Shown: positions 4,537 through 59,672 of the stretch, piece after piece
Layout: every line of letters begins with the position of its first letter
Position numbering within the stretch: position 1 is the stretch's first letter
Assembly: GCA_041650615.1 (NCBI GenBank)
Contig: JBAZKU010000001.1
Span: 91,763-155,762 of the forward strand
Length of the DNA stretch: 64,000 nucleotides
Reading direction: 5' to 3'
Source of the DNA: Minisyncoccota bacterium
Lineage (GTDB): Bacteria; Patescibacteriota; Minisyncoccia; Phycocordibacterales; UBA9973
Program-made: the position numbers and the translations under genes
The notes under the pieces: generated by a model
What the model was told of the DNA's origin: nothing
Database searches by the model: none
Seen by the model: the letters and a program-made list of their open reading frames with translations, nothing else

Positions 4537-6624
4537 ATGGAGTTGCACGAGTTACCTAAAAATAAAGAAATAACATATATTGGTTATACCACTTACCGGG
4601 ATAAAAATCAGCTTTTTGGCATAAAACGCAAAGATAGGCGTCAGCATGTTTATATCCTCGGAAAATCCGGTACCGGTAAATCTGCGTTGATGTTCAATAT
4701 GATTATTCAGAATATTGAAAACGGCGACGGAGTTTGCATGGTTGACCCGCACGGGGAAAATGTGGAAGCAATTTTATCAGCTATTCCGCCGCACCGCATG
4801 AAAGATGTCGTTTATTTCAATCCGGCAGATACAGATTTTCATATTGGATTTAATGTTTTGGAACTCATTGACCCAAAATACAAACACTTAGTGGCTTCAG
4901 GGCTTATGGGTATTTTCACAAAAATTTGGGCGAACGCTTGGAGCGCTCGAATGGAATACATTTTAAATAATGCGATTTTAGCATTACTTGATACTCCAGG
5001 TTCAACTCTTCTCGGTATTCCTAGAATGCTAGTGGACAAAGATTATCGACAAAAAATAATCACCAATTTAAAAGACCCTGTAATCAAGGCTTTCTGGGTG
5101 CATGAATATGAGGCCTGGCAGGATAAATTCAGAAACGAAGCTATCGCGCCGATTCAAAATAAAGTCGGACAATTTCTTTCCACTTCCATTATCAGAAATA
5201 TTGTCGGTCAATCTATCAGTACCATAAATATTTTTGACATAATGAATGAAGGCAAGATTTTTCTGGTGAATGTTTCCAAGGGGCGTATCGGTGAAGACAA
5301 TTCTTCGCTCTTGGGAGGAATGATCATTACCAAAATTCAGTTGGCGGCTATGGAACGCGTGCGTATCCCGGAAGAAGTCAGAAAAGATTTCTATCTTTAT
5401 GTGGATGAATTTCAAAATTTCGTAACTGATGCTTTCGCTGGTATTTTGTCTGAAGCCAGAAAATATAGATTAAATCTTACGGTGGCCCATCAATACACCG
5501 CTCAACTTATTACGGAAAAAAATTCGAGTGTTCGAGATGCTATTTTTGGAAACGTCGGAACGATGATAGTTTTTAGAGTCGGAGCTGATGATGCGGAATT
5601 TTTGGAAAAAGAATTTGAACCGGAGTTTACCCCTCAAGATATTGTCAATTTGCCAAACTTTAAAGTCTATTTGAAATTAATGATAGATGGTGTATCATCT
5701 CGTCCGTTTTCCGCCAAGACTCTTCCGCCGATGGTAAAATCAGGCAATAAAGAAGTGGAAGAAGAAGTTATAAAAACTTCTCGCGCCCTTTATTGCAGGC
5801 CGAGAGAAGTAGTGGAAAGAGAAATAAATGATTGGAGCGGAATGTCCATCGGTGATGATAGTAATTCCGGTGGCGTAGAAAAATTTCCGGCTATATGCTC
5901 CAATTGCGGAAAAGAAACGACAGTGCCTTTCAAACCGGAGCCGGGCAGGGCAGTATATTGTAAGGATTGTATAGCCAAAATAAAATCTGGAGAAATAAAA
6001 CCGATTGCCGGAGCCACAAAACAAATCAAACAAGATGAGACCAAGTTTTATAAACCCTTGGCTGATTTAGGGATAGAGTTTAAATCAAAAGATGGAACTA
6101 ATGGTATTAATGGAGAAGCAGAAAGATATCCGGAAAGATTAGGTAAGGCCGTACCGCATGATTTTGATAAAAAAATTCCAACTTCCGCAGGAAATGCTTC
6201 ATTTGCGCGTCCGCGAATATTTTCAACAATTAAGAAAGTTTTTACTAAAGGCACTACGAATGAAAAAGCAGCTCCAGTAAAAACAGTGAGAGAAAATCCA
6301 GGGTTAAAAGAGATTTTAAATAAAGCGCTATCTGAAAATAAACCTTCTGTTTCAACACCCATTAAAACTCCAACCCCTGTTTCTGTTCCCACACCAGCCC
6401 CGATTTCTCTTGATGCTCTTAAAACAGTACCTTCAAAACCTGCCCGCAGTGCTACACATGGCGTTGCAGGCGGGGACCGCGCAGCTAGTGCTGAAGATAT
6501 GGATAAATTAAAGAATCTTATTTCAGAGAAAGTTCCCGCGTCCGCGAATAAAGCAAAAGCTTCGCCCGTAGGGACACAGCCGAGGGAAGTTCCGGAAGAT
6601 GTTTTGAGAAAAATTTTAGAGTAA
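4537..6624 (+). CDS. soluble FtsK/HerA/TraD (type IV coupling-protein)-like P-loop ATPase with C-terminal CxxC-x17-CxxC zinc ribbon and Pro/Ala/Lys-rich tail
   Basis: 695 aa. Walker A ILGKSGTGKS, then DPHGE, then Walker B FYLYVDEFQNF. No N-terminal TM segment. Paralog of the ORF at 10477. Confidence 0.75.
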   Translation: MELHELPKNKEITYIGYTTYRDKNQLFGIKRKDRRQHVYILGKSGTGKSALMFNMIIQNIENGDGVCMVDPHGENVEAILSAIPPHRMKDVVYFNPADTDFHIGFNVLELIDPKYKHLVASGLMGIFTKIWANAWSARMEYILNNAILALLDTPGSTLLGIPRMLVDKDYRQKIITNLKDPVIKAFWVHEYEAWQDKFRNEAIAPIQNKVGQFLSTSIIRNIVGQSISTINIFDIMNEGKIFLVNVSKGRIGEDNSSLLGGMIITKIQLAAMERVRIPEEVRKDFYLYVDEFQNFVTDAFAGILSEARKYRLNLTVAHQYTAQLITEKNSSVRDAIFGNVGTMIVFRVGADDAEFLEKEFEPEFTPQDIVNLPNFKVYLKLMIDGVSSRPFSAKTLPPMVKSGNKEVEEEVIKTSRALYCRPREVVEREINDWSGMSIGDDSNSGGVEKFPAICSNCGKETTVPFKPEPGRAVYCKDCIAKIKSGEIKPIAGATKQIKQDETKFYKPLADLGIEFKSKDGTNGINGEAERYPERLGKAVPHDFDKKIPTSAGNASFARPRIFSTIKKVFTKGTTNEKAAPVKTVRENPGLKEILNKALSENKPSVSTPIKTPTPVSVPTPAPISLDALKTVPSKPARSATHGVAGGDRAASAEDMDKLKNLISEKVPASANKAKASPVGTQPREVPEDVLRKILE

Positions 6625-17464: not shown

Positions 17465-17493
17465 TGAAAAACCCAAGAATAATGTTTTTAAGG

Positions 17494-18205
17494 GTGTACA
17501 TAGGAGTGTACATAGGAGTTTCCTATGTATTTGTATCACTAAAGTTAAGCCATTCAAATAGTTCCTTTTTATGATCAATTAATTTTTTAAAATAAATAGG
17601 GAATTGTGATGGATTTAGGATTTGAAATTTTTGCTCAGTATATTCTTTTATGCTTGAATAAGGATATTTTAGAACGTAATTTAGTAAATTAGTTCTATTA
17701 TTATTTTTACTCTCTCGCCAATTTTTATTTATCAATTTTGCTGGATTTAAATGTATATATGAATAAATATATTTTAAATAATTATCTTTATCTATATGAA
17801 TTGATTTAAATACACCCTCATACAATTTACCAGTTCTTTTATATTTTTTATTAAAATACATTGAATATCCAGTTAACAATTTACGCATATATGTAGAAAT
17901 GCCGTTTTCTTTTTTTTCGCGGACAAGAATATGGAAATGATTTGGCATTAAACAATATGCTCCAACATCAACGATTGTTTCTTCTCTATTAAAAAATTTA
18001 TCAATTTCTCTTAGAATGATACTTTTTTCTGTATTACAAAGATACATCAGAAATAGAAAATGTTCATAGTCTTTTTTATCTAAAAATATTATTCTTTTTT
18101 CTGTGCCACGATTATATAAATGATAGTATTCATTTATCGAGAAGGATTGTTTTCTCAGAGCCATAATTTAAGTATAACACATACATAGGAAACTCCTATG
18201 TATTA
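17494..18205 (-). mobile_element. IS200/IS605-like (REP-associated tyrosine transposase) element with hairpin ends
   Basis: Left end: GTACATAGGAG x2 then ACATAGGAGTTTCCTATGT (17496..17529). Right end: ACATAGGAAACTCCTATGT (18183..18201), its exact reverse complement. Confidence 0.7.
17523..18164 (-). CDS. HUH tyrosine transposase (RAYT / TnpA-IS200-like)
   Basis: YHLYNRG, LMPNHFHILV (HuH) and a C-terminal YSYIHLNP motif; 213 aa. Confidence 0.75.
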   Translation of the reverse strand: MALRKQSFSINEYYHLYNRGTEKRIIFLDKKDYEHFLFLMYLCNTEKSIILREIDKFFNREETIVDVGAYCLMPNHFHILVREKKENGISTYMRKLLTGYSMYFNKKYKRTGKLYEGVFKSIHIDKDNYLKYIYSYIHLNPAKLINKNWRESKNNNRTNLLNYVLKYPYSSIKEYTEQKFQILNPSQFPIYFKKLIDHKKELFEWLNFSDTNT

Positions 18206-18331
18206 TGTATTATTTTTGTTGACAAGTTAAAATTTTTCTGCTATTCTATATATAGAGATATTCGTATAGAAAAAGTAATTATTGTTATTTGTTAAATCAA
18301 ACATTTTAACCAAATTTTTTTGGAGGTATTT

Positions 18332-18659: not shown

Positions 18660-19307
18660 TTATTGTCTATTTTTTAGGGCGTTTTTGAGAGTATCGTTAT
18701 CGGAATATTCAAGTTCAGTGCCGGTGGAGAGACCCCTGCCTAGTGAAGAAATCTTTATGCCTAAAGGTTCAGCAACAGGTTTTAACTGATTGCGAACATA
18801 TAAATCGGTATGATTACCTTGCGGACTTAAGGAAAAAGCTAGAACAATTTCCCCGCCTCGCGTCGACGAGTCTCCACGAGTCGAGGCGGGTTTTAAAAAA
18901 TCTCTTTTTATTTTTTCTATCAGCTCATTAATTCTTATTCTTTTATTTGTATTTTTTTCAACAATCGGCACCAGTCCTCCCAAAATAAAATATTTGCCGT
19001 TATAAACCCTGCTGGCATTTATACTTTCAAAATCGGAATCTTTTTCCACCACCATCAGAGTGGAAGAATCAATACTTTTATCGGCGCAAATTTCGCACAC
19101 TTTTTCTTTTTTGGATTCAGATATAAAAAATCTAAAACATTCAGAACATTGCATGGTATCTTTTCTTAATTCTTTAATTAAATCGGATAAATTAGAAGTG
19201 TAATCTAAATTTTTAGCCATCAAAAAATAAACAAAACGTTTTGCTTGTCTTTCTCCAATACCGGGAAATTCTTTAAAAATTTCAGTTAATTTTTCTATGG
19301 TGTTCAT
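18660..19307 (-). CDS. recR: recombination protein RecR
   Basis: HhH FPGIGERQAKR, a C4 zinc finger CSECFRF...CEICAD and a Toprim region. Carries the in-frame 39-bp palindrome (PASTRGDSSTRGG). Confidence 0.9.
   Translation of the reverse strand: MNTIEKLTEIFKEFPGIGERQAKRFVYFLMAKNLDYTSNLSDLIKELRKDTMQCSECFRFFISESKKEKVCEICADKSIDSSTLMVVEKDSDFESINASRVYNGKYFILGGLVPIVEKNTNKRIRINELIEKIKRDFLKPASTRGDSSTRGGEIVLAFSLSPQGNHTDLYVRNQLKPVAEPLGIKISSLGRGLSTGTELEYSDNDTLKNALKNRQ
18852..18890. repeat. 39-bp GC-rich palindromic element (CCCGCCTCG...CGAGGCGGG) inserted in frame in recR
   Basis: Differs by 1 nt from the reverse complement of 32375..32413; related to 33353..33391. Confidence 0.85.
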
Positions 19308-20827: not shown

Positions 20828-20917
20828 GCACATTTTGTGAAGGATTTTCGAAACTGCGCCCTCGGAGTCATAAGGGCAGGGGACCCACACGTTTCTTAAA
20901 ATCCTTCACAAAATGTG
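20828..20917 (+). repeat. diverged copy of the GC-rich promoter-proximal element (GCGCCCTCGGAGTC..GGGCAGGGGACCCAC), nested in a 21-bp inverted repeat (GCACATTTTGTGAAGGATTTT / AAAATCCTTCACAAAATGTGC)
   Basis: Lies directly upstream of the trpS promoter (TAATAT at 20919..20924, ATG at 20932). Confidence 0.7.
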
Positions 20918-22144: not shown

Positions 22145-23554
22145 CAAAATAGGGTTTATATAAAAGATTTAAAAGATAATATAGGTAAAGAAATAATTAT
22201 CGCCGGCTGGGTGAATATCAGACGCGACCAGGGGAAAATGGTTTTTTTTGATATGCGAGATATGACGGGCTTGGTGCAATGCGTAGTCTTGCCGAGTCAC
22301 GCCGAGGCCATAGAAAAAGCCAAAGAAATTCGCCCTGAATGGGTTTTAAAAATTACCGGTATGGTCAATAAGCGCCCGGACAAAAATGTAAAAGCTGGTG
22401 TCTTAAATGGTGAAGTAGAACTGGAAGTTACGGATATTGAGGTATTAAGCAAAGCAGAAACCCCAGCCATTGATGTATCAACTGATGGATATGAAATAGG
22501 GGAAGAACATAGGCTAGAACACAGATATCTTGATTTACGTAGAGGTCGCATGCAGAAAAATATTCGCAACAGACATAAAGTTGTAAAATTTATTCGTGAT
22601 TACTTGGATAAAGAAAATTTTATTGAGATAGAAACCCCTATACTTTCCAAATCGACAGCTGAAGGGGCTCGGGATTTTATTGTGCCTTCAAGATTGGACC
22701 AAGGAAAATTTTATGCATTACCTCAAGCTCCCCAGCAATATAAACAACTTTTAATGGCATCTGGTATAGAAAAATATTTCCAAATGGCAAAATGTATGCG
22801 TGATGAAGACTTACGAGGGGATCGTCAGCCGGAATTTACTCAACTTGATCTTGAAATGAGTTTTGTAGATCGCGAAGAAGTAATGTCTCTTAATGAAGAT
22901 TTATTGATAAAAATCGTAAAGAAACTGTATCCAGAAAAAGAAATACAAGAAATTCCTTTTCCCAGAATTGCCTACAAGGATGCAATGAAGAAATACGGGA
23001 GTGATAGGCCAGATTTAAGAAAAGATAAGAATAATAAAAATATTCTGGCTTTCTGTTGGGTTGTTGATTTTCCATTTTTCGAAAAAGCAAACAAAGATAA
23101 TAATCCACAGGCAGAAGGTGAATGGACTTTTACGCACAATCCTTTTTCAGCCACACAGCCGCAATTTCACGATGATTTATTAAATAAAAGAAATATTCCA
23201 AATATCCTTACAAATCAATATGATATTATTTTAAACGGTTTTGAAATTGGCGGTGGTTCAATCAGGAACCATGAACCTGAAGCGCTTCTTGCTGTTTATG
23301 AGATAATGGGTGTAAAAAAGGAACAAGTAGAAAAAAATCTATTCTATATGTTAGAAGCTTTTCGTTCCGGTACCCCTCCACATGGAGGTATCGCTTGGGG
23401 TTTTGATCGATTAATGATGGTACTTGAGAATGAATCGAATATCAGAGAAGTAATAGCATTTCCAAAAAATGGTGAAGGGAAAGACTTAATGATGAATTCT
23501 CCTTCAGAAATACCTGAAAAGCAATTGAAAGAATTGGGGATAAAATTAAAGTAA
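22142..23554 (+). CDS. aspS: aspartyl-tRNA synthetase (short, archaeal/non-discriminating-like length)
   Basis: 470 aa with class II motifs (FRDE-like CMRDEDLR, GGGSIRNH). Confidence 0.9.
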   Translation: MQNRVYIKDLKDNIGKEIIIAGWVNIRRDQGKMVFFDMRDMTGLVQCVVLPSHAEAIEKAKEIRPEWVLKITGMVNKRPDKNVKAGVLNGEVELEVTDIEVLSKAETPAIDVSTDGYEIGEEHRLEHRYLDLRRGRMQKNIRNRHKVVKFIRDYLDKENFIEIETPILSKSTAEGARDFIVPSRLDQGKFYALPQAPQQYKQLLMASGIEKYFQMAKCMRDEDLRGDRQPEFTQLDLEMSFVDREEVMSLNEDLLIKIVKKLYPEKEIQEIPFPRIAYKDAMKKYGSDRPDLRKDKNNKNILAFCWVVDFPFFEKANKDNNPQAEGEWTFTHNPFSATQPQFHDDLLNKRNIPNILTNQYDIILNGFEIGGGSIRNHEPEALLAVYEIMGVKKEQVEKNLFYMLEAFRSGTPPHGGIAWGFDRLMMVLENESNIREVIAFPKNGEGKDLMMNSPSEIPEKQLKELGIKLK

Positions 23555-26104
23555 AAAATCCTTTATATTTTTTCTATCTCTTTTGAGCCATTCAATATTG
23601 TTTTCCAATTGTTCTATTACTTGCTCCATAGAGCGTTCGGCGCCGGTGGCGCCACGGTGAGCAGCCGCAAATTTTTTAAAAAGCGATAAATGCCTTTTTT
23701 CAGCGCTTCTATCTATTATTTTAATGAGTCCCGCCAATGTATGGTTGCCATCTCCATAATGCGCTACTAATGTCTTCCAATTTTTTTTAACAAAATTTAA
23801 CCAAATATCGCGACCTGCCGGATTTATTCCAACTGACGAGATTATACTTATTACATCCTGTGCTCGAACATCTTTAGATAGCGCGAATTGACATGCTTTT
23901 GATAAAATTTTAGGTTCGGAGAAATATCCCAAGGCGCGACCAATACGCTCTTTTTCTTCGTGAAATTTTTCTTTTTTATACAGTTTTATGAAGGTTTGGT
24001 ATTCTTTCATACCTCCCCAAGTTGCTATTATTGCATAAATAGCGCCGCGAATGTCCGGATTGATATAACCACCTTTTTTCATTATGTTAAATTTCTTTTT
24101 TGCTTTAATTATGATTTTCTTATCCCCCAATCTTCCCAGTTTAGAAATTATAAGCGGTCTAAGAAGCGTATCGTTATATGATTCGGATTTTTTTTCTTCC
24201 CAGTCAAGGCGTTTAAAAGCAGGGGAGAATAGGTCAAATATTAGAAAATCCAGTTTTTCTTTCAATTCTGTTTTAGCCACAAGCTGTTCAAGTCGCGCCA
24301 GTCCGCCAGTAAGTTCAAACCACACAGTATAATTATTTTCATTTTTATATGCTTTTAAAAATTCCAAAGCATAACTGGTTGGAATATCACCCGATTCAGC
24401 CAAAGCGAAGAGGTCTCGGATAATGCCAAGTCTGTCGCAAGGAGAAAGAATTTTATTTTGAACCGGCTTAATTAAATTTTTCAGAAGTGTTTTTTCATAA
24501 GCTATTCTGAAAAATCCGTTTTCGCCTATGTTTATTTTTATCCACGGAAGAGAATTTGGAACGGATATTTTTTTATCCGAAAGAAAAACCATTTTTTTGT
24601 TTTTATCATTTCCGACAAAGACGGGGGTTTGCCAAACGGTTTTATCTTTTGCTTTAATTTTTGATTTAGCACTCATAAAAAATCTGTTTTGAGATAAAGC
24701 AAGCTTATCATTCACAATATCCGTTTTAATAACTGGATAGCCGGATTTAGAAGTCCAGTTATGCATAACACCGGCTACTGGTTTTTTGGAAACCTTTTCA
24801 AAGGCTTTCCATAAGTGAATCGTTTCCGTATTTTTATAACTATGTTTTTTCAAATAATATCTGAGTCCGTTTTTGAAATTTTTCTCGCCCAGATAACTTG
24901 CCAACATTTTTATAATTGCCGGTCCTTTGGAATATGAAATTCTGTCAAATATTTCTCCAATTTCGCTTGGATGACGCACTGTTATTTGAATAGGGTGAGT
25001 AGATAAAAGTGAATCTAATCTCAAAGCCATATTGGATGAAACACTTGTGCTATTGGCGGAAAATTGCGTCCAGATATCCCATTTTGGGAAAAGCTTATCC
25101 ACGGCCAAATATTCTATATATGAAGCGAAACCCTCGTTTAGCCATAAATGGGTCCACCATTCCATGGTAACCAAATTACCGAACCATTGATGGGCAAGCT
25201 CGTGTGCCACAACAAGGGCCACCCATTGCTTTTGGGATAAAGAGGAGTGATTTTCATCAATTAGAAGCGAAGTTTCGCGATAAGTAATTGCTCCCCAGTT
25301 TTCCATGGCGGCTGAAGCAAAATCCGGAATAGCTATCATGTCCAATGTTGGCAATGGGTAGGGAATGGCGAAATATTTCTCAAAAAATTCCAAAGTTTTT
25401 ACGGCGCAATCAAGAGCAAATTTTGCCTGATGTTTTTTGCCGGGAGTGGTAAAGACACGCACTAATTTACCGTTTTTGGTTTTTGATTCTAAATATTCAA
25501 AATCCCCAATAATGAATGCCAAGAGATAAGTGGACATTTTGGGAGTAGGGGAGAATTTTATAATTTCAAATCCGGCACTATGTTCGGCAACAGAGACAGG
25601 TAATGTGTTTGAAATCGCCGTTTTACCTTTCGGCACAATAAGTGATACATGAAAAACGGCTTTATGCGCCGGTTCATCAAAACAAGGGAAAGCTCGACGC
25701 GCATCGGTGGATTCAAACTGAGTGGTGGCCATATGATGTTCTTTACCTTCAAAATAATATTTGCTTCGGTAAAATCCCCGCATTTTTTCATTTAATATGC
25801 CTGCAAAAACAATAGTAAGTTTTATGTCTTTTTTAATGGGAATATATCTGGGGAATAAAAATATAGCTGTTTCGTTTTTATCATCGTAGGATATTTTTTT
25901 GGCAAATATTTTTTCTTTATCAATTACAATACTGGCGGTTTCTATTTCAAGTTCCTTAGAGTGAAGAATAATGGATTTTGTTTTCTTTAAAATAGAAAGG
26001 GTTATCGTCTCCATACCCTCAAAAGTAAAATTCTCCAAATCTGGTTGGAGTTGTATTTCGTATTTTGTTGGAATTACTTTTTTTGAAAGCCGAATATTTT
26101 GCAT
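23546..26104 (-). CDS. pepN: M1 family aminopeptidase N
   Basis: AAMENWG plus HELAHQWFGNLVTMEWW...NEGFASY; 852 aa. Confidence 0.9.
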   Translation of the reverse strand: MQNIRLSKKVIPTKYEIQLQPDLENFTFEGMETITLSILKKTKSIILHSKELEIETASIVIDKEKIFAKKISYDDKNETAIFLFPRYIPIKKDIKLTIVFAGILNEKMRGFYRSKYYFEGKEHHMATTQFESTDARRAFPCFDEPAHKAVFHVSLIVPKGKTAISNTLPVSVAEHSAGFEIIKFSPTPKMSTYLLAFIIGDFEYLESKTKNGKLVRVFTTPGKKHQAKFALDCAVKTLEFFEKYFAIPYPLPTLDMIAIPDFASAAMENWGAITYRETSLLIDENHSSLSQKQWVALVVAHELAHQWFGNLVTMEWWTHLWLNEGFASYIEYLAVDKLFPKWDIWTQFSANSTSVSSNMALRLDSLLSTHPIQITVRHPSEIGEIFDRISYSKGPAIIKMLASYLGEKNFKNGLRYYLKKHSYKNTETIHLWKAFEKVSKKPVAGVMHNWTSKSGYPVIKTDIVNDKLALSQNRFFMSAKSKIKAKDKTVWQTPVFVGNDKNKKMVFLSDKKISVPNSLPWIKINIGENGFFRIAYEKTLLKNLIKPVQNKILSPCDRLGIIRDLFALAESGDIPTSYALEFLKAYKNENNYTVWFELTGGLARLEQLVAKTELKEKLDFLIFDLFSPAFKRLDWEEKKSESYNDTLLRPLIISKLGRLGDKKIIIKAKKKFNIMKKGGYINPDIRGAIYAIIATWGGMKEYQTFIKLYKKEKFHEEKERIGRALGYFSEPKILSKACQFALSKDVRAQDVISIISSVGINPAGRDIWLNFVKKNWKTLVAHYGDGNHTLAGLIKIIDRSAEKRHLSLFKKFAAAHRGATGAERSMEQVIEQLENNIEWLKRDRKNIKDFLL

Positions 26105-40711: not shown

Positions 40712-41164
40712 TTATCTACACGAACTAGAAAGCACATAACCTGCACTCTCCGCTTCTGTAGATGTTGCAAAATAAATTCTATTTTCTTGTTTGATAGTTT
40801 TTCCAGCAGAACAACTTATGGAATAATATTTACTCCCCTTACTTGAAGCAAAAAAATTCCCTGAAGTTGATTTTGACGTATTTATTGAATTTTGGTCTAT
40901 AGAACTTATTACATTGGCTTCTTGACCCTCATATTCTCCTGCCTGCGCAGGCAGGATTTTTATACCTGAGTTTGTGTCACTTTTAGATAGTCTACCTAGC
41001 TCAAATGAGCCTAAACCAACCAAAATTATGATAATAATGACCAAAATATCCTTACCCTTATCGCTTTCTACGAATTGCTTGACCCCGTTAAAGACAGGGG
41101 GTCGCTGCGAGCCCTCGCGGTCTTTAACGGGGTTGATTTTTTTTGAGGGATAGTGTAAACTCAT
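40712..41164 (-). CDS. hypothetical secreted/anchored protein carrying two in-frame palindromic insertions
   Basis: 150 aa with an N-terminal TM. Contains the 18-bp palindrome (LPAQAG) and a 50-bp palindrome at 41083..41132. Confidence 0.6.
   Translation of the reverse strand: MSLHYPSKKINPVKDREGSQRPPVFNGVKQFVESDKGKDILVIIIIILVGLGSFELGRLSKSDTNSGIKILPAQAGEYEGQEANVISSIDQNSINTSKSTSGNFFASSKGSKYYSISCSAGKTIKQENRIYFATSTEAESAGYVLSSSCR
40938..40955. repeat. 18-bp palindrome CCTGCCTGCGCAGGCAGG, in frame (LPAQAG)
   Basis: One of four copies. Confidence 0.85.
41083..41132. repeat. ~50-bp GC-rich palindrome CCCCGTTAAAGAC ... GTCTTTAACGGGG inside a CDS
   Basis: Read directly. Confidence 0.6.
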
Positions 41165-51669: not shown

Positions 51670-52764
51670 TTACTGAACAGCTTTATCTTGCCCCAAAATC
51701 TTCACCAACGCAAGCTCCAACGGAAGCTCGGAAACAAAAGCTCGATCTATGTCATTATAAGCCTCAAGGAGAATTGAAAGCGCTGGAGAACGAAGAATAC
51801 CTTCTTTGTCGGACTTCACTAAACCCTTCAAGAATTCCAAATCTTCTTCTCCTAAATCCCCTACCATTCCTGCCTGCGCAGGCAGGTCTTTTTCTAATTT
51901 AGGTGCATATTTTAAAATTATAGCCATACGAAACTTCTCTATGATTAATTTGGAATAAAGTTTCATATCTAAACTTTCTCCTGCCGCTTTGCGAATAGTC
52001 ATAATCCCCTCTTCTAAATTTTTATTAGCGATAGCGGAAATGAAATCATTTACCAAGACTGTTTTCGGCGCGCCGGTTATTTTTTCTATATCTTCTCGTT
52101 TTACCAGCCTCGCCGAGTCTAGGCGGGTTTTTTTATCTCTACCGGAGAAATTTAAAACTTTTTGCAACGTGCCTAAGGCATCGCGGAATGAACCATCGCC
52201 CAAAATAGCTATCAATTCAGCTCCGCCGGCATCCAATTCAAAGCCTTCTTTTTTAGAAACTTCCAAAACCATTTTTTTAGAAGCAATATCGGAAGCCTTT
52301 CTAAAAGTGAAAACCTGACAGCGGGAGATAATGGTTTCCGGCACTTTATGAATTTCGGTTGTGGCTAAAATAAAAATAACATGCTTTGGCGGTTCTTCTA
52401 AGGTCTTCAGCAAAGCACCCCAAGCATCCTTGGAGAGCATATGTACTTCATCTATAATATAAACCTTATATTTTGAATCAAAAGGCAGAACCCTCGCCCC
52501 ATCCCGAAGCGCTCTGATATCTTCAATTCCCCTATTAGAAGCGGCATCTATTTCATAAAGGTCATTTTCTGAAACCCCTATATCTTTGGCAAAAATTCTA
52601 GCCACAGAAGTTTTGCCTGTGCCCCTAGAGCCCACAAAAAGGTAAGCATGCGAAACTTTATTAGTCTCTACGGAGCTTTCCAGCACTTTTACTATATGGT
52701 CTTGCCCGATGACTTCCTGAAAGGTTTTAGGTCTGTATTTTCTATATAATGCCAAATCATGCAT
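51670..52764 (-). CDS. dnaX: DNA polymerase III subunit gamma/tau (short form)
   Basis: YRPKTF..VIGQ, GSRGTGKTS, EIDAASNRGIEDIR, DEVHMLS, SRCQ. Contains the 18-bp palindrome (LPAQAG). Confidence 0.9.
   Translation of the reverse strand: MHDLALYRKYRPKTFQEVIGQDHIVKVLESSVETNKVSHAYLFVGSRGTGKTSVARIFAKDIGVSENDLYEIDAASNRGIEDIRALRDGARVLPFDSKYKVYIIDEVHMLSKDAWGALLKTLEEPPKHVIFILATTEIHKVPETIISRCQVFTFRKASDIASKKMVLEVSKKEGFELDAGGAELIAILGDGSFRDALGTLQKVLNFSGRDKKTRLDSARLVKREDIEKITGAPKTVLVNDFISAIANKNLEEGIMTIRKAAGESLDMKLYSKLIIEKFRMAIILKYAPKLEKDLPAQAGMVGDLGEEDLEFLKGLVKSDKEGILRSPALSILLEAYNDIDRAFVSELPLELALVKILGQDKAVQ
51869..51886. repeat. 18-bp palindrome CCTGCCTGCGCAGGCAGG, in frame in dnaX
   Basis: Read directly. 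Confidence 0.85.
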
Positions 52765-52800
52765 GGTTTGATTATAACCCGTGATAAAAGAAATTCAAAG

Positions 52801-52870
52801 AATTTTAAGAGTCGTGGGTTCCCTGTCCTCACGGACTCCGAGGGCGAAGGCTCAGAAATTTTTTGAATTT
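52801..52870 (-). repeat. GC-rich promoter-proximal element (reverse-complement copy) upstream of dnaX
   Basis: Sense with respect to dnaX. TTATAAT lies 6 nt before the dnaX ATG. Confidence 0.85.
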
Positions 52871-52972: not shown

Positions 52973-54037
52973 AAACATTATTCTTGAGTTTTTTTTATTG
53001 AGAAAATCATTTATGATTTTCTCTACTTCTTTGGCATTTTTTGTTTTCATTAATTTTACCCGCAATTCTTTGGCTCCTTTAAAGTCATTTACATATGCCT
53101 TAAAATGTTTTTTCATAACGGAAAAATTTTTATGCTTAGGTTTTGAAAGTTCTTTCTCAAAAATTTGGGTGTGTTCTACAAGAACTTCTAATTTTTCCTG
53201 AATAAAACTGAACTCTCTTAAATTTTTTGTCCCCGAGGGTCCCACGGCGACCTCGCCGGGATCGGCGAAGGGCGCAGGGGCAGAAAATTTAAGAGAGTGA
53301 GGTTTTTGATTAAAAAACCATGGATTACCAAAAACCGCTCTCCCAATCATTATTCCATCGCAACCAGTTTCTCTTACTTTTTGTTTAGCTTCTTCCAGAC
53401 TTTGAACATCACCATTTCCTATTATCAGAGTTTTATATCCTAATTCATCGCGAATTTCCACGATTCTTTTCATTAATTCCCAATGCGCGGGGCCATTAGA
53501 CATTTCCTTGCGAGTTCGCAGATGTATAATCAATGCCGCTAAATTTTCTTTTAAAAGTCCTTTTACCCAAGTTTCAATTTCATTTTTATTATAGCCAATG
53601 CGAGTTTTGACCGAAACAGGCAATCCTTTTCCATCTTTCTGGACTGTGTGAATAATTTCTCGCGCTAATTTTAAATTTTTCATCAAGGCTGCGCCTGCCC
53701 CTTGCTTCTCAATTGATTTATCCGGACAGCCCATATTTATATCTATGCCGTCAAAGCCCAGTTTTTTACAAAGAGCGGAAGCTTTTCTCATATTTTCCGT
53801 ATTTGAACCAAATAATTGCACCACTATTGGATGTTCTTTTTTAGAAAATTTTAAATCAATTAGAAGTTTATCCTTCCCTTTTGCGTGAACAAGACCGTTA
53901 GCAGAAACAAATTCCGTCCAGATTACATCTGGTTTTCCATGTTGGGCTATCATCTGTCTGAAAGCGCAATCGGTGACATCCGACATCGGAGCTAGGCAGA
54001 AAAATGGTTTATTTAATTTTTTCCAAAAGTTGTTCAT
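52970..54037 (-). CDS. dus: tRNA-dihydrouridine synthase
   Basis: CLAPMSDVTDCAFR and IDINMGCP. Has an internal GC-rich low-complexity insert at 53228..53285 (APAPFADPGEVAVGPSGT). Confidence 0.85.
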   Translation of the reverse strand: MNNFWKKLNKPFFCLAPMSDVTDCAFRQMIAQHGKPDVIWTEFVSANGLVHAKGKDKLLIDLKFSKKEHPIVVQLFGSNTENMRKASALCKKLGFDGIDINMGCPDKSIEKQGAGAALMKNLKLAREIIHTVQKDGKGLPVSVKTRIGYNKNEIETWVKGLLKENLAALIIHLRTRKEMSNGPAHWELMKRIVEIRDELGYKTLIIGNGDVQSLEEAKQKVRETGCDGIMIGRAVFGNPWFFNQKPHSLKFSAPAPFADPGEVAVGPSGTKNLREFSFIQEKLEVLVEHTQIFEKELSKPKHKNFSVMKKHFKAYVNDFKGAKELRVKLMKTKNAKEVEKIINDFLNKKNSRIMF

Positions 54038-54063
54038 AAATCTTCCAAACTAAGAAAATTAAA

Positions 54064-54133
54064 AATTTTAAGAGTCGTGGGTCCCCTGTCCTCACGGACT
54101 CCGAGGGCGAAGGCTCAGAAATTTTTGAATTTT
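54064..54133 (-). repeat. GC-rich promoter-proximal element (reverse-complement copy) upstream of dus
   Basis: Read directly. Confidence 0.85.
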
Positions 54134-54146
54134 TTAGTTTGATATT

Positions 54147-56379: not shown

Positions 56380-57261
56380 ATGAAAATTCAAAAGCTCCCC
56401 AAAAATAAATTCCCGAGAGCCCTTTTGGAAATTCCGCAACCGCCGGAAGATCTTTGGATAATCGGCAACCTGCCAAAACCTGCCTGCGCAGGCGGGGAAA
56501 ACCTAATTTATTTATGTGTGGTGGGCTCGCGTAAATTTACTTCCTACGGAAAAGAAGCTTGTGAAAAGATAATTGCTGGTTTGAAAGGATATCCAATCGC
56601 CATAGTTTCCGGTTTTGCCATGGGTATAGACACCATAGCTCACAAGAAAGCGATGCAAGTCGGATTAAAAACGATAGTTTTTCCGGGTTCCGGGCTTTCA
56701 GATGAAGCGATGTATCCAAAAATGAATGTTCGCTTAATGAGAGAGGTGGTGGAAAAAGGCGGGTGCTTGATTTCCGAATTTGAACCCGATTTCAAAGCAA
56801 CTCAGTGGAGTTTCCCTATGCGCAATCGCCTAATGGCTGGTATTTCCAAATCCGTGCTGATAATAGAAGCGGAGGAAAAATCCGGTACTCTTATTACTGC
56901 CAGATTGGCTACAGAATACAATAGAGATGTGCTTGTTGTCCCTGGATCAATTTCTTCACCGTCTTCCAAAGGTACCAATAAATTAATCAAACAAGGCGCA
57001 ACGCCTGTAACCTGCGCGGAAGATGTACTGGAAGCTTTGGGATTTGAGTTAAAAAAAGATAAAGAAAAACAGCAAAAACTTTTTGAAGATTTGTCACCGG
57101 AAGAACAAAAAGTAGTAAAACTTCTTCGTGAACCGATTCCCCGCGATGATTTAATTCGCGCCATGAAAATGCCGACTCCTAACGCCAATGCGATACTTTC
57201 CATTATGGAAATAAAAGAACTGATAAAAGAAGAATTAGGTGAGATTAGGCTAGGTACCTAA
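56380..57261 (+). CDS. dprA: DNA processing protein DprA (Smf)
   Basis: VVGSRKFTSYG....IVSGFAMGIDTIAH; contains a 1-mismatch copy of the 18-bp palindrome. Confidence 0.8.
   Translation: MKIQKLPKNKFPRALLEIPQPPEDLWIIGNLPKPACAGGENLIYLCVVGSRKFTSYGKEACEKIIAGLKGYPIAIVSGFAMGIDTIAHKKAMQVGLKTIVFPGSGLSDEAMYPKMNVRLMREVVEKGGCLISEFEPDFKATQWSFPMRNRLMAGISKSVLIIEAEEKSGTLITARLATEYNRDVLVVPGSISSPSSKGTNKLIKQGATPVTCAEDVLEALGFELKKDKEKQQKLFEDLSPEEQKVVKLLREPIPRDDLIRAMKMPTPNANAILSIMEIKELIKEELGEIRLGT
56479..56496. repeat. 18-bp palindrome, 1-mismatch copy (CCTGCCTGCGCAGGCGGG), in frame in dprA (PACAGG)
   Basis: Read directly. Confidence 0.8.
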
Positions 57262-57407: not shown

Positions 57408-59672
57408 ATGAAATTATTAATCGTTGAATCGCCATCAAAAGCAAAGACCATTGAGAAATATCTCGAGGGTGTTTATACTGTGCGCGCATCTGTCGGGCAT
57501 ATCCGCGATTTACCGAAATCAAATAAGCAAGCGATAGACATAGAAGGCGGGTTCATACCGCATTATGAAGTTTCCAAAGGCAAGGAAAAAATTATACATG
57601 AACTCCGATCTCTTGGAGAAAAAGCTAGTGAAATACTTTTAGCCACAGACCCTGATCGCGAAGGAGAAGCGATAGCTTGGCATATTGAAGAATTATTGAA
57701 TAAAGATCCCGAAGGAAAGCAAGTTTCCTACGGGGCGGGTAAAAAAAAAGCTTCTATAAAAAGAGTTAGATTTTATGAAATAACCGAGGAAGCAGTAAAA
57801 GAAGCCTTGAAGTACCCTGAAGAAATTGATATGAAGCTAGTAAAAGCTCAAGAAGCTAGACGAGTATTAGACAGACTTGTCGGTTATGATCTTTCGGGAC
57901 TTATTTGGAAAAAAGTACGTTATGGACTTTCTGCAGGGCGAGTTCAATCCCCTGCGCTTCGCATAATAATGGAACGCGAACGTGAGATTCGCGCTTTTGT
58001 TCCGGAACAGTATTGGAAATTATTCGGTCTCTTTGAAACTCAAAAAAAGGGAAAATTGACCCTTTTTTGTTCAGAAGAACCTAAAAATGAAAAATTGGTT
58101 GAAAAAATACTTGAAGAAGGGAAAAAAGGAAATTGGCTGGTAAAAGAAGTAAAAGAATCCGAACAAAAAAGAATTCCTCGGGCTCCATTCACTACTTCTA
58201 CTTTGCAACAAACAGCAAGCTCACGGCTTGGTTATTCCCCTTCTAGAACAATGCAAATAGCGCAAAAACTTTATGAAGCTGGACATATTACATATATGAG
58301 AACGGATAGTACAAATCTGTCCTCGGCCGCGCAAGCGCAAATCGTTTCCCTTATTAATAAAAAATATGGAAATGAATATGCTTTACCACGAGCTTATAAG
58401 GCTAGATCTAAAAATGCCCAAGAAGCGCATGAAGCAATTCGCCCGACCCATATAGAAAATTTAGGAGCTGGTACTGAGGAGCAGCAAAGACTTTACAAAT
58501 TGATTTGGGAACGCGCTGTATCTTCACAAATGGCTGATGCAAAATTATTAAAAACAAAAATAAACGCAAATATTTCTCCAGATGCACCTATTCCTGATTT
58601 TACAGCTACCGGTTCACGGATTCTTTTTCCCGGATGGCTTCTTGTGGATAAAGATAGTGTGGGAGAGGACATAGAATTGCCGGAAGTAAAGAAAGGAGAA
58701 AAATTAAAATTGTTGAATCTGATAAAAGAAGAAAAATTTACTGAGCCACCTAATAGATACAGTGAAGCGGGCCTAATAAAGGAACTGGAGGCGAGAGATA
58801 TAGGCCGGCCATCTACATATGCTTCCATAATGAAAACACTGGAAGACAGAGAATATGTAAAAAAAGAAGGTAAAACTCTCTACCCTACCGATGTCGGCGA
58901 AGTCGTATCTGATTTTCTGGAAAAATATTTTGCTAATTATATTTCCGATACTTTTACAGCAGAAATGGAAGATGAATTGGATGAAATTTCCAGAGGTGAA
59001 CGCGAATATGAAAAAACACTTAAAGATTTTTATGGACCATTTTCCAAAGATGTAAAATCAAAAGAAAAATTAGAAAAAGCGACTAATTTGGGCGATGCCC
59101 CGGAAAATATAAAATGTCCAAAATGTGGAAGTAAAATGATTATTAAACTTTCCCGCGGAGGCAAGTTTTATTCTTGTTCAAGATATCCTGATTGCGACGG
59201 CGCATTAATGATAGATGGAACGGAGTTAAAGGGTCCGAAAGAAACAGGAGAAATGTGTCCGCTATGCGGCCTGCCTGCGCAGGCAGGAGAAAAAAAGAAA
59301 AAAAACTATGGTGGTAAACTTATTATCCGAGAAAGACGCGATGGAAGCGGAACTTTTATTTCTTGTTCACGTTATCCAAAATGCAAGTTTATTAAAAAAG
59401 ATGAAGCAGAAGAAGCCAAAAAAAGGACAGGTATTATTTGTCCTTTGTGTAAAAAGGGAGATATAACTGAACGGCGCGGAAGGTTCGGTATATTTTATTC
59501 TTGTTCAAATTATCCCGATTGTAAATTTGCCATGAAAGCAAAACCTACCGGTAGAATATGCGACAAATGCGGTTCTTTAATGATGGAGGGAACAAAAACT
59601 ATCCCCGAAAGATGCAGTAACAAGTCTTGCTCAAACCATAATCCTCATAAAATATCAAAAATTGATAAATAA
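57408..59672 (+). CDS. topA: DNA topoisomerase I with four C-terminal C4 zinc ribbons
   Basis: Toprim MKLLIVESPSKAKTI and the active-site region. The 18-bp palindrome sits between zinc ribbons. Confidence 0.95.
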   Translation: MKLLIVESPSKAKTIEKYLEGVYTVRASVGHIRDLPKSNKQAIDIEGGFIPHYEVSKGKEKIIHELRSLGEKASEILLATDPDREGEAIAWHIEELLNKDPEGKQVSYGAGKKKASIKRVRFYEITEEAVKEALKYPEEIDMKLVKAQEARRVLDRLVGYDLSGLIWKKVRYGLSAGRVQSPALRIIMEREREIRAFVPEQYWKLFGLFETQKKGKLTLFCSEEPKNEKLVEKILEEGKKGNWLVKEVKESEQKRIPRAPFTTSTLQQTASSRLGYSPSRTMQIAQKLYEAGHITYMRTDSTNLSSAAQAQIVSLINKKYGNEYALPRAYKARSKNAQEAHEAIRPTHIENLGAGTEEQQRLYKLIWERAVSSQMADAKLLKTKINANISPDAPIPDFTATGSRILFPGWLLVDKDSVGEDIELPEVKKGEKLKLLNLIKEEKFTEPPNRYSEAGLIKELEARDIGRPSTYASIMKTLEDREYVKKEGKTLYPTDVGEVVSDFLEKYFANYISDTFTAEMEDELDEISRGEREYEKTLKDFYGPFSKDVKSKEKLEKATNLGDAPENIKCPKCGSKMIIKLSRGGKFYSCSRYPDCDGALMIDGTELKGPKETGEMCPLCGLPAQAGEKKKKNYGGKLIIRERRDGSGTFISCSRYPKCKFIKKDEAEEAKKRTGIICPLCKKGDITERRGRFGIFYSCSNYPDCKFAMKAKPTGRICDKCGSLMMEGTKTIPERCSNKSCSNHNPHKISKIDK
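59270..59287. repeat. 18-bp palindrome CCTGCCTGCGCAGGCAGG, in frame in topA (LPAQAG)
   Basis: Read directly. Confidence 0.85.

Follow-up and report, generated by a model that had tools for sequence, protein, structure and literature searches.

Can a short palindrome enter essential genes of an ultra-small bacterial genome again and again, and be carried there as part of the encoded proteins? This question is raised by a 64,000-nt stretch of a Minisyncoccota genome (assembly GCA_041650615.1, contig JBAZKU010000001.1, positions 91,763 to 155,762; hereafter the window), in which a GC-rich 39-bp palindrome lies inside recR, scpB and a gene for an S11 DD-carboxypeptidase. We conclude that it is probably a miniature, non-coding, GC-rich palindromic insertion element, similar in kind to the Rickettsia palindromic elements (RPEs) and to the GC clusters of mitochondrial genomes. 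The reading as a mobile palindrome tolerated in frame is well supported by empty sites, by a broad distribution over unrelated genes and by the way its sequence follows the coding strand of the host gene.

Exact insertion of a 39-bp palindrome

The palindrome described in the initial annotation is confirmed in all three genes, with exact coordinates (Table 1) and perfect 9-bp terminal inverted repeats, CCCGCCTCG/CGAGGCGGG, in every copy. These three full copies are the only matches in the window with up to three mismatches, and since 100 dinucleotide shuffles gave an expectation of 0.00, a chance origin is excluded. The element has a GC content of about 74% in a window of 35%, as striking a difference as had been remarked, and the predicted hairpins have energies of -21.7 to -26.6 kcal/mol (z = -2.4 to -4.2). 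In recR and scpB the element is oriented alike with respect to the gene, and the two copies, which are 1 nt apart, do encode the same peptide, PASTRGDSSTRGG, as first reported, while the carboxypeptidase copy lies in the opposite orientation relative to its gene, differs by 4-5 nt and encodes PPRVGEPLRVEAG. No Rfam family matches the element or the other GC-rich motifs in the window and 18 of the comparison loci (designated here by L numbers), where the only Rfam matches are tRNAs, one rRNA end and one group I intron.

Orthologous loci confirm that the three window copies are lineage-specific, exact insertions. Most recR orthologues encode 202-205 aa and read ...IK(R)E-K-NLKEI... where the window reads DFLK[PASTRGDSSTRGG]EI; the closest relative, L191 (83% nucleotide identity), is without the 39-bp block, and L188, L189 and L021 carry the element at the same site as the window with 38 of 39 nt identical. 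The scpB gene of L195 (87% amino acid identity) reads GAA AAA GAA AAT|GAA ATT, and the window has the 39 bp between AAT and GAA. Two further scpB states were found: the same 39-mer 6 nt upstream of the window site in L194, which is an independent insertion, and a different 39/36-nt palindrome (CCTGCCCGCAATGC...GATGCAGGCGGG) exactly at the window site in L193 and L192. Carboxypeptidase orthologues in L193, L194 and L195 are without the 13 codons; among homologues, only two of the 13 aligned columns are occupied in 141 of 150 representatives, by an ambiguously placed 'AG'. Each of the three genes has close orthologues that lack exactly 13 codons, which effectively refutes the possibility, considered in the initial annotation, that the segments are ancestral. 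The reverse case is seen in topA, where L020, syntenic with the window at 56-64 kb with about 80% amino acid identity, carries the element (ETEKK[PASTRGDSSTRGG]NKLTL) and the window gene is empty; the junction reads ...CAAAAAAAG|GGAAAATTG in the window and ...GAAAAGAAG[39 bp]AATAAACTA in L020. Filled and empty states can also be compared within single loci, as in L018, where a tRNA fragment reads GCCAAGCGG[E]TAAGGCA and the intact tRNA of the same locus GCCAAGCGGTAAGGCA, and likewise in L044 and in L084, which lies on the 1.14-Mb Levybacteria chromosome OY970292.1.

No target-site duplication was found over 107 distinct flank pairs from the genome scan described below: 72 of the pairs share 0 nt and the rest share sequence at chance level. 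All four pairs that share 7 nt lie inside heptamer tandem repeats, and the apparent 7-nt duplications arise because the 39-mer sits in arrays with a 7-nt period. Such arrays, for example of AATTGAA or GCTTGTA, were seen around the 39-mer in L008, L091, L017, L035, L069, L015 and L095. The same flank pairs have a weak junction preference for a purine at -1 and a pyrimidine at +1. These comparisons show that the element is added as an exact 39-bp block, in either orientation, with neither duplication nor deletion of the target. At the protein level, the peptides fall in alignment gaps relative to the solved structures 3vdp_A (RecR), 4i98_B (ScpB) and 3mfd_A (DacB), the gap of the carboxypeptidase against 3mfd_A being 16 residues long; these alignments were used in place of an AlphaFold model of RecR, which was poor (mean predicted local distance difference test score 55).

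The genome scan used the exact pattern CCCGCCTCGACTCG-N11-CGACGCGAGGCGGG, in which 28 of the 39 nt are fixed, with one genome per Genome Taxonomy Database species. It returned 107 contig stretches with 108 copies in 83 assemblies (counted by accession prefix), several of the loci coming from the Hainich or Rifle groundwater sites; the same pattern has no match in viral contigs. Nearly all matches are Patescibacteria, or Candidate Phyla Radiation (CPR), by label: Saccharibacteria, Woesebacteria, Levybacteria, Curtissbacteria, Doudnabacteria, Kuenenbacteria, Komeilibacteria, Buchananbacteria, Moraniibacteriota, Portnoybacteria, Kaiserbacteria, Zambryskibacteria, Nomurabacteria, Paceibacterota and Minisyncoccia. 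The element had been called unexpected in a CPR-like genome, but it is widespread across this group. Some labels look wrong, and the records assigned to Gammaproteobacteria, Pseudomonadales, Burkholderiales and Bdellovibrionales are probably mislabelled: L020 (JAMPXW010000002.1, 'Burkholderiales', 33% GC) is the locus syntenic with our Paceibacterota window, and the other suspect loci, including those labelled 'Gammaproteobacteria', have 50-60% identity to CPR-labelled loci in housekeeping proteins. Full-text literature searches, whose coverage is incomplete so that an earlier description is possible, returned no account of the element in CPR genomes.

The copies are not mainly intergenic. Of 111 copies, 82 (about 74%) lie inside open reading frames (ORFs) of 120 aa or more, which between them use all six frames and give the peptides PASTR..TRGG (36 copies), PPRV(D/G)E..RVEAG (16), PASRR..ASRGG (11), RLAS..ESRR (8), PPRLA..RREAG (7) and ARLDS..DARR (4). 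Hosts that reach 150 aa or more number 78 and have matches to 133 Pfam families, among them SecA, class I aminoacyl-tRNA synthetases, UvrD helicases, TopA, ThyA, Obg and TruB. The coding orientation is forward in 45 cases and reverse in 33. The targets are thus numerous unrelated housekeeping genes, along with non-coding DNA. Certain insertion sites are common to orthologues of different genomes, namely in SecA (L026 and L065), leucyl-tRNA synthetase (LeuRS; L012 and L042) and recR.

Sequence conservation points to recent movement. Outside the element, the recR genes of L188, L189 and L021 are only 75-78% identical to that of the window, and 55-63% at third codon positions. An identical 39-mer occurs in recR of three genomes and scpB of a fourth, and the same 39-mer, judged by its centre sequence, is found in loci labelled Saccharibacteria (L016), Woesebacteria (L053) and Parcubacteria (L055). 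Because the recR element is far more conserved than its flanks, a recent spread or homogenization is indicated; the copies would be young or kept uniform, with apparent in-frame decay in other lineages, such as the recR remnant of L190, which has the same length and is 44% identical to the element. The recR gene of the window is also a mosaic. Its 5' 112 codons are nearest to the element-less L191 (45/300 differences, 15%, compared with 81/300, 27%, to L188), while the 40 codons upstream of the element are nearest to the element-bearing L188 (14/117, 12%, compared with 20/108, 18.5%, to L191). This suggests that the element came in by recombination together with flanking DNA. Presence and absence vary among close relatives in recR, scpB and topA, and the overall pattern fits ongoing horizontal spread by recombination at orthologous sites combined with new insertions.

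A DNA or RNA signal that, in contrast to a selfish element, benefits the host, for example in uptake, in recombination or as a protein-binding hairpin, and is kept by selection could also account for the same 39-mer in assemblies labelled Saccharibacteria, Woesebacteria and Parcubacteria, for conservation above coding constraint and for the mosaic around the recR copy. We think this improbable. The density is low (3 copies in 64 kb), close relatives differ in presence, some lineages let the copies decay, placement in essential proteins is costly and no consistent position relative to genes was seen.

Probable translation of copies within genes

The initial annotation had emphasized that the insertions are in frame. 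The frame itself is automatic because the length is 39; the informative facts are the stop-free frames and a loop that tracks the coding strand. The 28 fixed nucleotides contain no stop in any of the six frames, no copy has a stop in the frame of its host, and the peptide is hydrophilic in every frame, with abundant Pro, Gly, Ser, Arg and Thr. The 6-nt loop contains on average 4.58 purines in forward-coded copies, compared with 2.52 in reverse-coded and 2.10 in non-coding copies (Mann-Whitney p ~1e-10 to 1e-12). Forward-coded loops read GGAGAC, GGAGGC or GAAGGC and reverse-coded and non-coding loops TGTCGC or GTTCGC, so that the coding strand is purine-rich either way, and PASTRCRSSTRGG is avoided in this comparison by coding orientation. 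Related CCNGCC... palindromes of lengths other than 39 nt are multiples of three in 13 of 18 cases within long ORFs and in 3 of 14 non-coding cases. Decayed copies (the recR remnant of L190 and forms such as PARNA..DAGG) keep the 39 nt and the frame and lose the hairpin. Strand tracking of the loop, multiple-of-three lengths and in-frame decay argue for translation, and we infer that the transcript and the protein of a host gene both retain the element, which would add 13 aa to a variable region of the protein, with selection apparently filtering the copies by length, frame and a purine-rich loop on the coding strand. A 38-nt variant in L012 (6546-6583), one base short, lies in a long open frame and could represent a frameshifted gene, a sequencing error or a spurious ORF.

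The same evidence bears on removal of the element at the RNA level, as a mini-intron, or on its translational bypass in the manner of mitochondrial byp elements, in either case with no peptide produced. In favour are a very stable hairpin, nucleotide conservation far above that of the flanks with third codon positions included, the presence of copies within tRNA-like sequence, and the precedent of GC-cluster bypassing in Magnusiomyces mitochondria (PMC8811140). Yet the loop follows the coding strand, intragenic relatives are mostly multiples of three, no copy has a host-frame stop, and decayed copies lose the hairpin and stay in frame at the same length. The tRNA contexts, as read in L007 and L039, are truncated remnants beside an intact tRNA. 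We consider either form of skipping slightly less probable still than a beneficial signal. As to placement inside a functional tRNA gene, ARAGORN predicted no tRNA spanning any copy, and removal of the 39 nt in silico restored none.

Mobilization by an IS200-like Y1 (HUH) transposase, as for repetitive extragenic palindromes (REPs) and their associated tyrosine transposases (RAYTs), ranks a little lower again in probability. A candidate enzyme is present: ORF 17523-18164 on the minus strand, 0.7 kb away from the recR copy, matches Pfam Y1_Tnp (E = 2.5e-08). The element resembles REPs, imperfect palindromes of some 20-40 bp that are inserted without duplication, in size and in leaving no target-site duplication. 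The Y1 gene, however, has AT-rich flanking palindromes of its own (TACATAGGAGTTTCCTATGTA type; about 17490-17530 and 18180-18210) with no relation to the element, and gene and palindromes form a separate small mobile unit. No Y1_Tnp family appeared among the recurrent neighbours of the 107 loci, in a general clustering rather than a dedicated Y1 search. Most copies are intragenic where REPs are extragenic, a conserved GTAG-like head is absent, and the 45 to 33 split between coding orientations indicates that insertion is not strand-specific. Finally, an ancestral protein segment, a functional peptide motif or an assembly artefact is effectively refuted by the empty sites and barely credible, even though two proteins share the peptide and it contains an RGD tripeptide, as most orthologues are without the segment, all six frames of the same DNA are in use and non-coding copies exist as well, and the copies come at orthologous positions from 83 assemblies of many independent studies.

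Several points weigh against the interpretation as a tolerated insertion element. Since the scan fixes 28 bases, conservation within the scan set is partly ascertainment; the recR and scpB comparisons were found through proteins and are free of it. A strong bias exists towards one frame, PASTR..TRGG, with 36 of the 78 long-ORF copies, and this bias together with the identity across phyla exceeds what simple tolerated junk would predict. The recR mosaic comes from one gene and a few dozen sites, and the case for translation is drawn from sequence patterns throughout.

Sister palindromes and a tRNA-linked GIY-YIG gene

The 39-mer belongs to a superfamily of palindromes, 18-41 nt long and with the termini CCNGCC...GGCNGG, that occurs widely among Patescibacteria. 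A sequence in dnaX which the initial annotation had taken for a possible decayed copy turns out to be an intact 24-nt member of a sister subfamily (Table 1). It has an identical copy in L086, variants of 30, 32 and 38 nt in L111, L044 and L115, respectively, and the subfamily recurs in these four unrelated loci; L111 holds two copies by exact pattern and three tandem 30-nt units in its sequence (L111 1-90). An 18-nt perfect palindrome, CCTGCCTGCGCAGGCAGG, occurs three times in the window, always within genes and always read as LPAQAG, and is a member of the related mini-palindrome superfamily; relative to the L020 orthologue, the copy in topA inserts 6 codons.

Table 1. Palindromic elements, host genes and an empty site in the 64-kb window
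Feature	Position	Strand	Details
39-bp element in recR	18852..18890	- (element forward on - strand)	encodes PASTRGDSSTRGG between ...DFLK and EIVLAFS
recR host gene	18660..19307	-	215 aa; Pfam RecR_C, Toprim_4, RecR_HhH
39-bp element in scpB	32375..32413	+	encodes PASTRGDSSTRGG between QEKEN and EITLGT
scpB host gene	32204..32815	+	Pfam SMC_ScpB, 7.5e-34; start from database protein P0121 (203 aa), mechanical ORF begins 32144
39-bp element in S11 DD-carboxypeptidase gene	33353..33391	- (reverse relative to host)	encodes (G)PPRVGEPLRVEAG(A)
Peptidase_S11 DD-carboxypeptidase host gene	32799..33725	+	Pfam PF00768, 1.8e-35
Empty site in topA	58049..58050	+	L020 orthologue (~80% aa identity) filled exactly here
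24-nt element CCCGCCTAGACTCGGCGAGGCTGG in dnaX	52104..52127	-	8 codons, peptide TRLDSARL; sister subfamily CCCGCCTAG...CGAGGCTGG
18-nt perfect palindrome CCTGCCTGCGCAGGCAGG in topA	59270..59287		peptide LPAQAG
18-nt perfect palindrome CCTGCCTGCGCAGGCAGG in dnaX	51869..51886		peptide LPAQAG
18-nt perfect palindrome CCTGCCTGCGCAGGCAGG in ORF 40712-41164	40938..40955		peptide LPAQAG

The recR loop hosts other short inserts in other lineages (RPSLGNE, TPKDGQ, KTVFGE and GSASGGKK among RecR orthologues P0002-P0120), and the recurrence of a PAR(N/P)..S.(D/G)AGG form in both RecR and ScpB orthologues suggests further subfamilies of the element. Imperfect relatives of CCTGCCTGCGCAGGCAGG lie near 56461-56499 and 6438-6497. 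The window TopA (topA, 57408-59672) also has ten extra residues, PEGKQVSYGA, near codon 100 that are missing from the L020 orthologue. Two more islands of 81% GC lie inside genes, at 53223-53289 (dus, minus strand), where the island encodes APAPFADPGEVAVGPSGTK, and at 23618-23675 (ORF 23546-26104); these may be other in-frame GC-rich insertions. Separately, a motif of about 75 nt, AAATTCAAAAAATTTyTGAGCCTTCGCCCTCGGAGTCCGTGAGGrCAGGGrACCCACGACTCTTAAAATT, is found at 32105-32180, 52795-52870 (minus strand) and 54060-54135 (minus strand), with a diverged fourth copy near 20853 (20835-20910). Oriented with each gene, it precedes the start codons of scpB, dnaX and dus by 30-45 nt; it has no match in Rfam and may be a promoter, a leader element or another repeat family.

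Clustering of the ORFs of all 107 loci in search of recurrent neighbours gave, as the most recurrent family, a protein of about 82 aa with a GIY-YIG domain (Pfam PF01541, E = 4.9e-17). It retains the invariant Y, Y, G, R, H and E columns, consists of the catalytic domain of about 80 aa alone, and carries no annotation beyond 'GIY-YIG nuclease family protein' or 'putative endonuclease', with most entries from Patescibacteria. For 12 of the 17 GIY-YIG genes, the element lies at most 25 nt from the called ORF start or overlaps it. The layout is constant. A 5' fragment of a tRNA that reaches the D-loop, where the insertion points are at G^T, is followed by the 39-mer and by 7-18 nt of continuing tRNA sequence. 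Then come the GIY-YIG ORF, which often ends on a TAA or TAG of the D-loop, and an intact tRNA of matching kind, in most cases Gln and in others Asn or Glu. An independent sample of 80 GIY-YIG homologues was picked from metagenomes by protein similarity alone, and 27 of them immediately precede a tRNA gene (Gln, Leu, Arg, Ile, Gly, Ala, Asn, Ser or Pro). Where enough upstream sequence was available, about 23 of 24 have a duplicated tRNA fragment split by one to three GC-rich palindromes, as read by eye. These palindromes include the 39-mer, 33- and 41-nt variants, a three-fold tandem 30-nt unit and forms of 18-21 nt such as CCTGCCTGC(G/C)GCAGGCAGG and TCCGCC...GGCGGA.

Further features of these regions were recorded in individual loci. 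Palindromes are present as tandem arrays, nested or as multiple insertions in a single tRNA remnant in L111, L120, L126, L131 and L167. The 18-nt palindrome CCTGCCTGCGCAGGCAGG, or a variant of 20 nt, interrupts the tRNA fragment ahead of the GIY-YIG gene in L119 and L176, and a 20-nt copy is also found ahead of the GIY-YIG gene in L177. The tRNA downstream of the cassette in L086 (438-661, minus strand) holds a group I intron (Rfam Intron_gpI, 50.9 bits).

One explanation for this association is that the small stand-alone GIY-YIG nuclease (about 82 aa) acts in trans, either mobilizing the element or making the DNA breaks that receive it, a weaker inference than those above. The GIY-YIG gene would then be a cassette placed just upstream of a tRNA gene, with a duplicated tRNA fragment, split by a palindrome, as its 5' border. 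More broadly, the 39-mer and its sister palindromes may be the non-coding half of a two-part mobile system with the tRNA-linked nuclease. Such an enzyme might recognize or cut the hairpin or cruciform, or make breaks. The palindrome would then be copied into the breaks, and gene conversion of a homing-like kind at orthologous sites would carry it from genome to genome. As all six frames are benign, this two-part 'hairpin patch' could colonize essential genes. We put the proposal forward tentatively and rate it as rather unlikely; the mechanism is a lead, not established, and is suggested by gene arrangement.

Weighing against it, the 64-kb window contains no GIY-YIG gene, only 12 of the 111 copies adjoin one, and the 39-mer or a variant close to it in length accompanies only about 6 of the 80 sampled homologues, the rest having other palindromes. 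To our knowledge the 82-aa protein has no evident DNA-binding domain, and we know of no GIY-YIG enzyme that transposes hairpins. The palindromes could merely accumulate in a neutral, hairpin-prone tRNA remnant, so that the link has two readings: breakage or mobilization by the nuclease, and a neutral sink for palindromes.

Significance and comparison with known systems

The ultra-small genomes of CPR bacteria, usually deemed streamlined, carry a family of very small palindromic insertions that sit in essential proteins (RecR, ScpB, SecA, LeuRS and TopA) and are identical across differently labelled lineages. These insertions explain many lineage-specific inserts of 6-13 aa in CPR proteins and can mislead alignments, phylogenies and structure predictions. 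Recent exchange of DNA among uncultured CPR populations can be traced by the sharp difference in identity, 97% in the element and about 75% in its flanks. How RPEs and mitochondrial GC clusters move is a long-standing question, for which the GIY-YIG/tRNA cassette provides a concrete, cloneable candidate enzyme with defined candidate substrates, the 39-mer and tRNA D-arm DNA. If the two-part proposal were true, mitochondrial GC clusters would have a first counterpart in bacteria for which the enzyme is identified.

The element is not a member of the RPE, miniature inverted-repeat transposable element (MITE), GC-cluster or REP families, and shares traits with each. Like MITEs, it is small, has terminal inverted repeats (9 bp), exists in many copies (3 in the window and 108 in public genomes) and has no coding capacity. 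MITEs, however, make target-site duplications, which the element does not, and share their ends with autonomous insertion sequences; in the 107 loci no recurrent transposase lies near the copies, and the recurrent GIY-YIG neighbour has the element on one side only. REP/RAYT systems likewise consist of many dispersed, non-coding copies of a small hairpin, but REPs are extragenic and accompany a REP-flanked Y1 transposase, whereas 82 of 111 copies of the element are in ORFs. Translational bypass inserts ('byps') have no multiple-of-three constraint and carry stops, whereas the intragenic palindromes here are mostly multiples of three in length and the element has no stop in the host frame.

For the nuclease, the closest likeness is to free-standing GIY-YIG homing endonuclease genes of the T4 Seg/Mob type and to organellar GIY-YIG ORFs, which are also small lone ORFs beside a highly conserved target, here a tRNA gene. 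Part of the tRNA target is duplicated, so that the gene stays intact. The known enzymes differ in having a DNA-binding domain and are not known to seed palindromes; the protein described here is predicted to be a catalytic domain alone.

RPEs are inserted in frame in many unrelated housekeeping genes and in non-coding DNA, with no known transposase (PMC10969869). The initial annotation had called the element RPE-like, which holds for its behaviour, as an in-frame peptide in unrelated proteins, and not for family membership, given its length of 39 bp and its different host clade. In both, a palindrome lies in frame in unrelated genes, protein function being apparently preserved, and a transposase is known for neither. 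RPEs are about 100-150 bp long and form some ten Rickettsia-specific families, each with a conserved peptide in a single frame; the element, compared here by description, has 39 bp, uses six frames, is identical across Patescibacteria and is accompanied at some loci by the GIY-YIG/tRNA cassette.

Yeast mitochondrial GC clusters, GC-rich palindromes of about 30-60 bp, are inserted in frame in var1, have loops that change fast, merge and form tandem arrays and are linked to recombination, and GC-rich palindromes flank tRNA genes in Neurospora mitochondria (PMC8811140). These clusters and the element are both short GC-rich palindromes of AT-rich, reduced genomes, with in-frame insertion polymorphism and proximity to tRNA genes; both vary fastest in their loops, merge, nest and form tandem arrays, and are linked to recombination or gene conversion. 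The clusters are organellar and have AG/TAG terminal repeats that have been read as target duplications, whereas the element is bacterial, makes no duplication and has a candidate nuclease partner. On this comparison, the element matches the GC clusters of yeast mitochondria in behaviour even more closely than it matches the RPEs.

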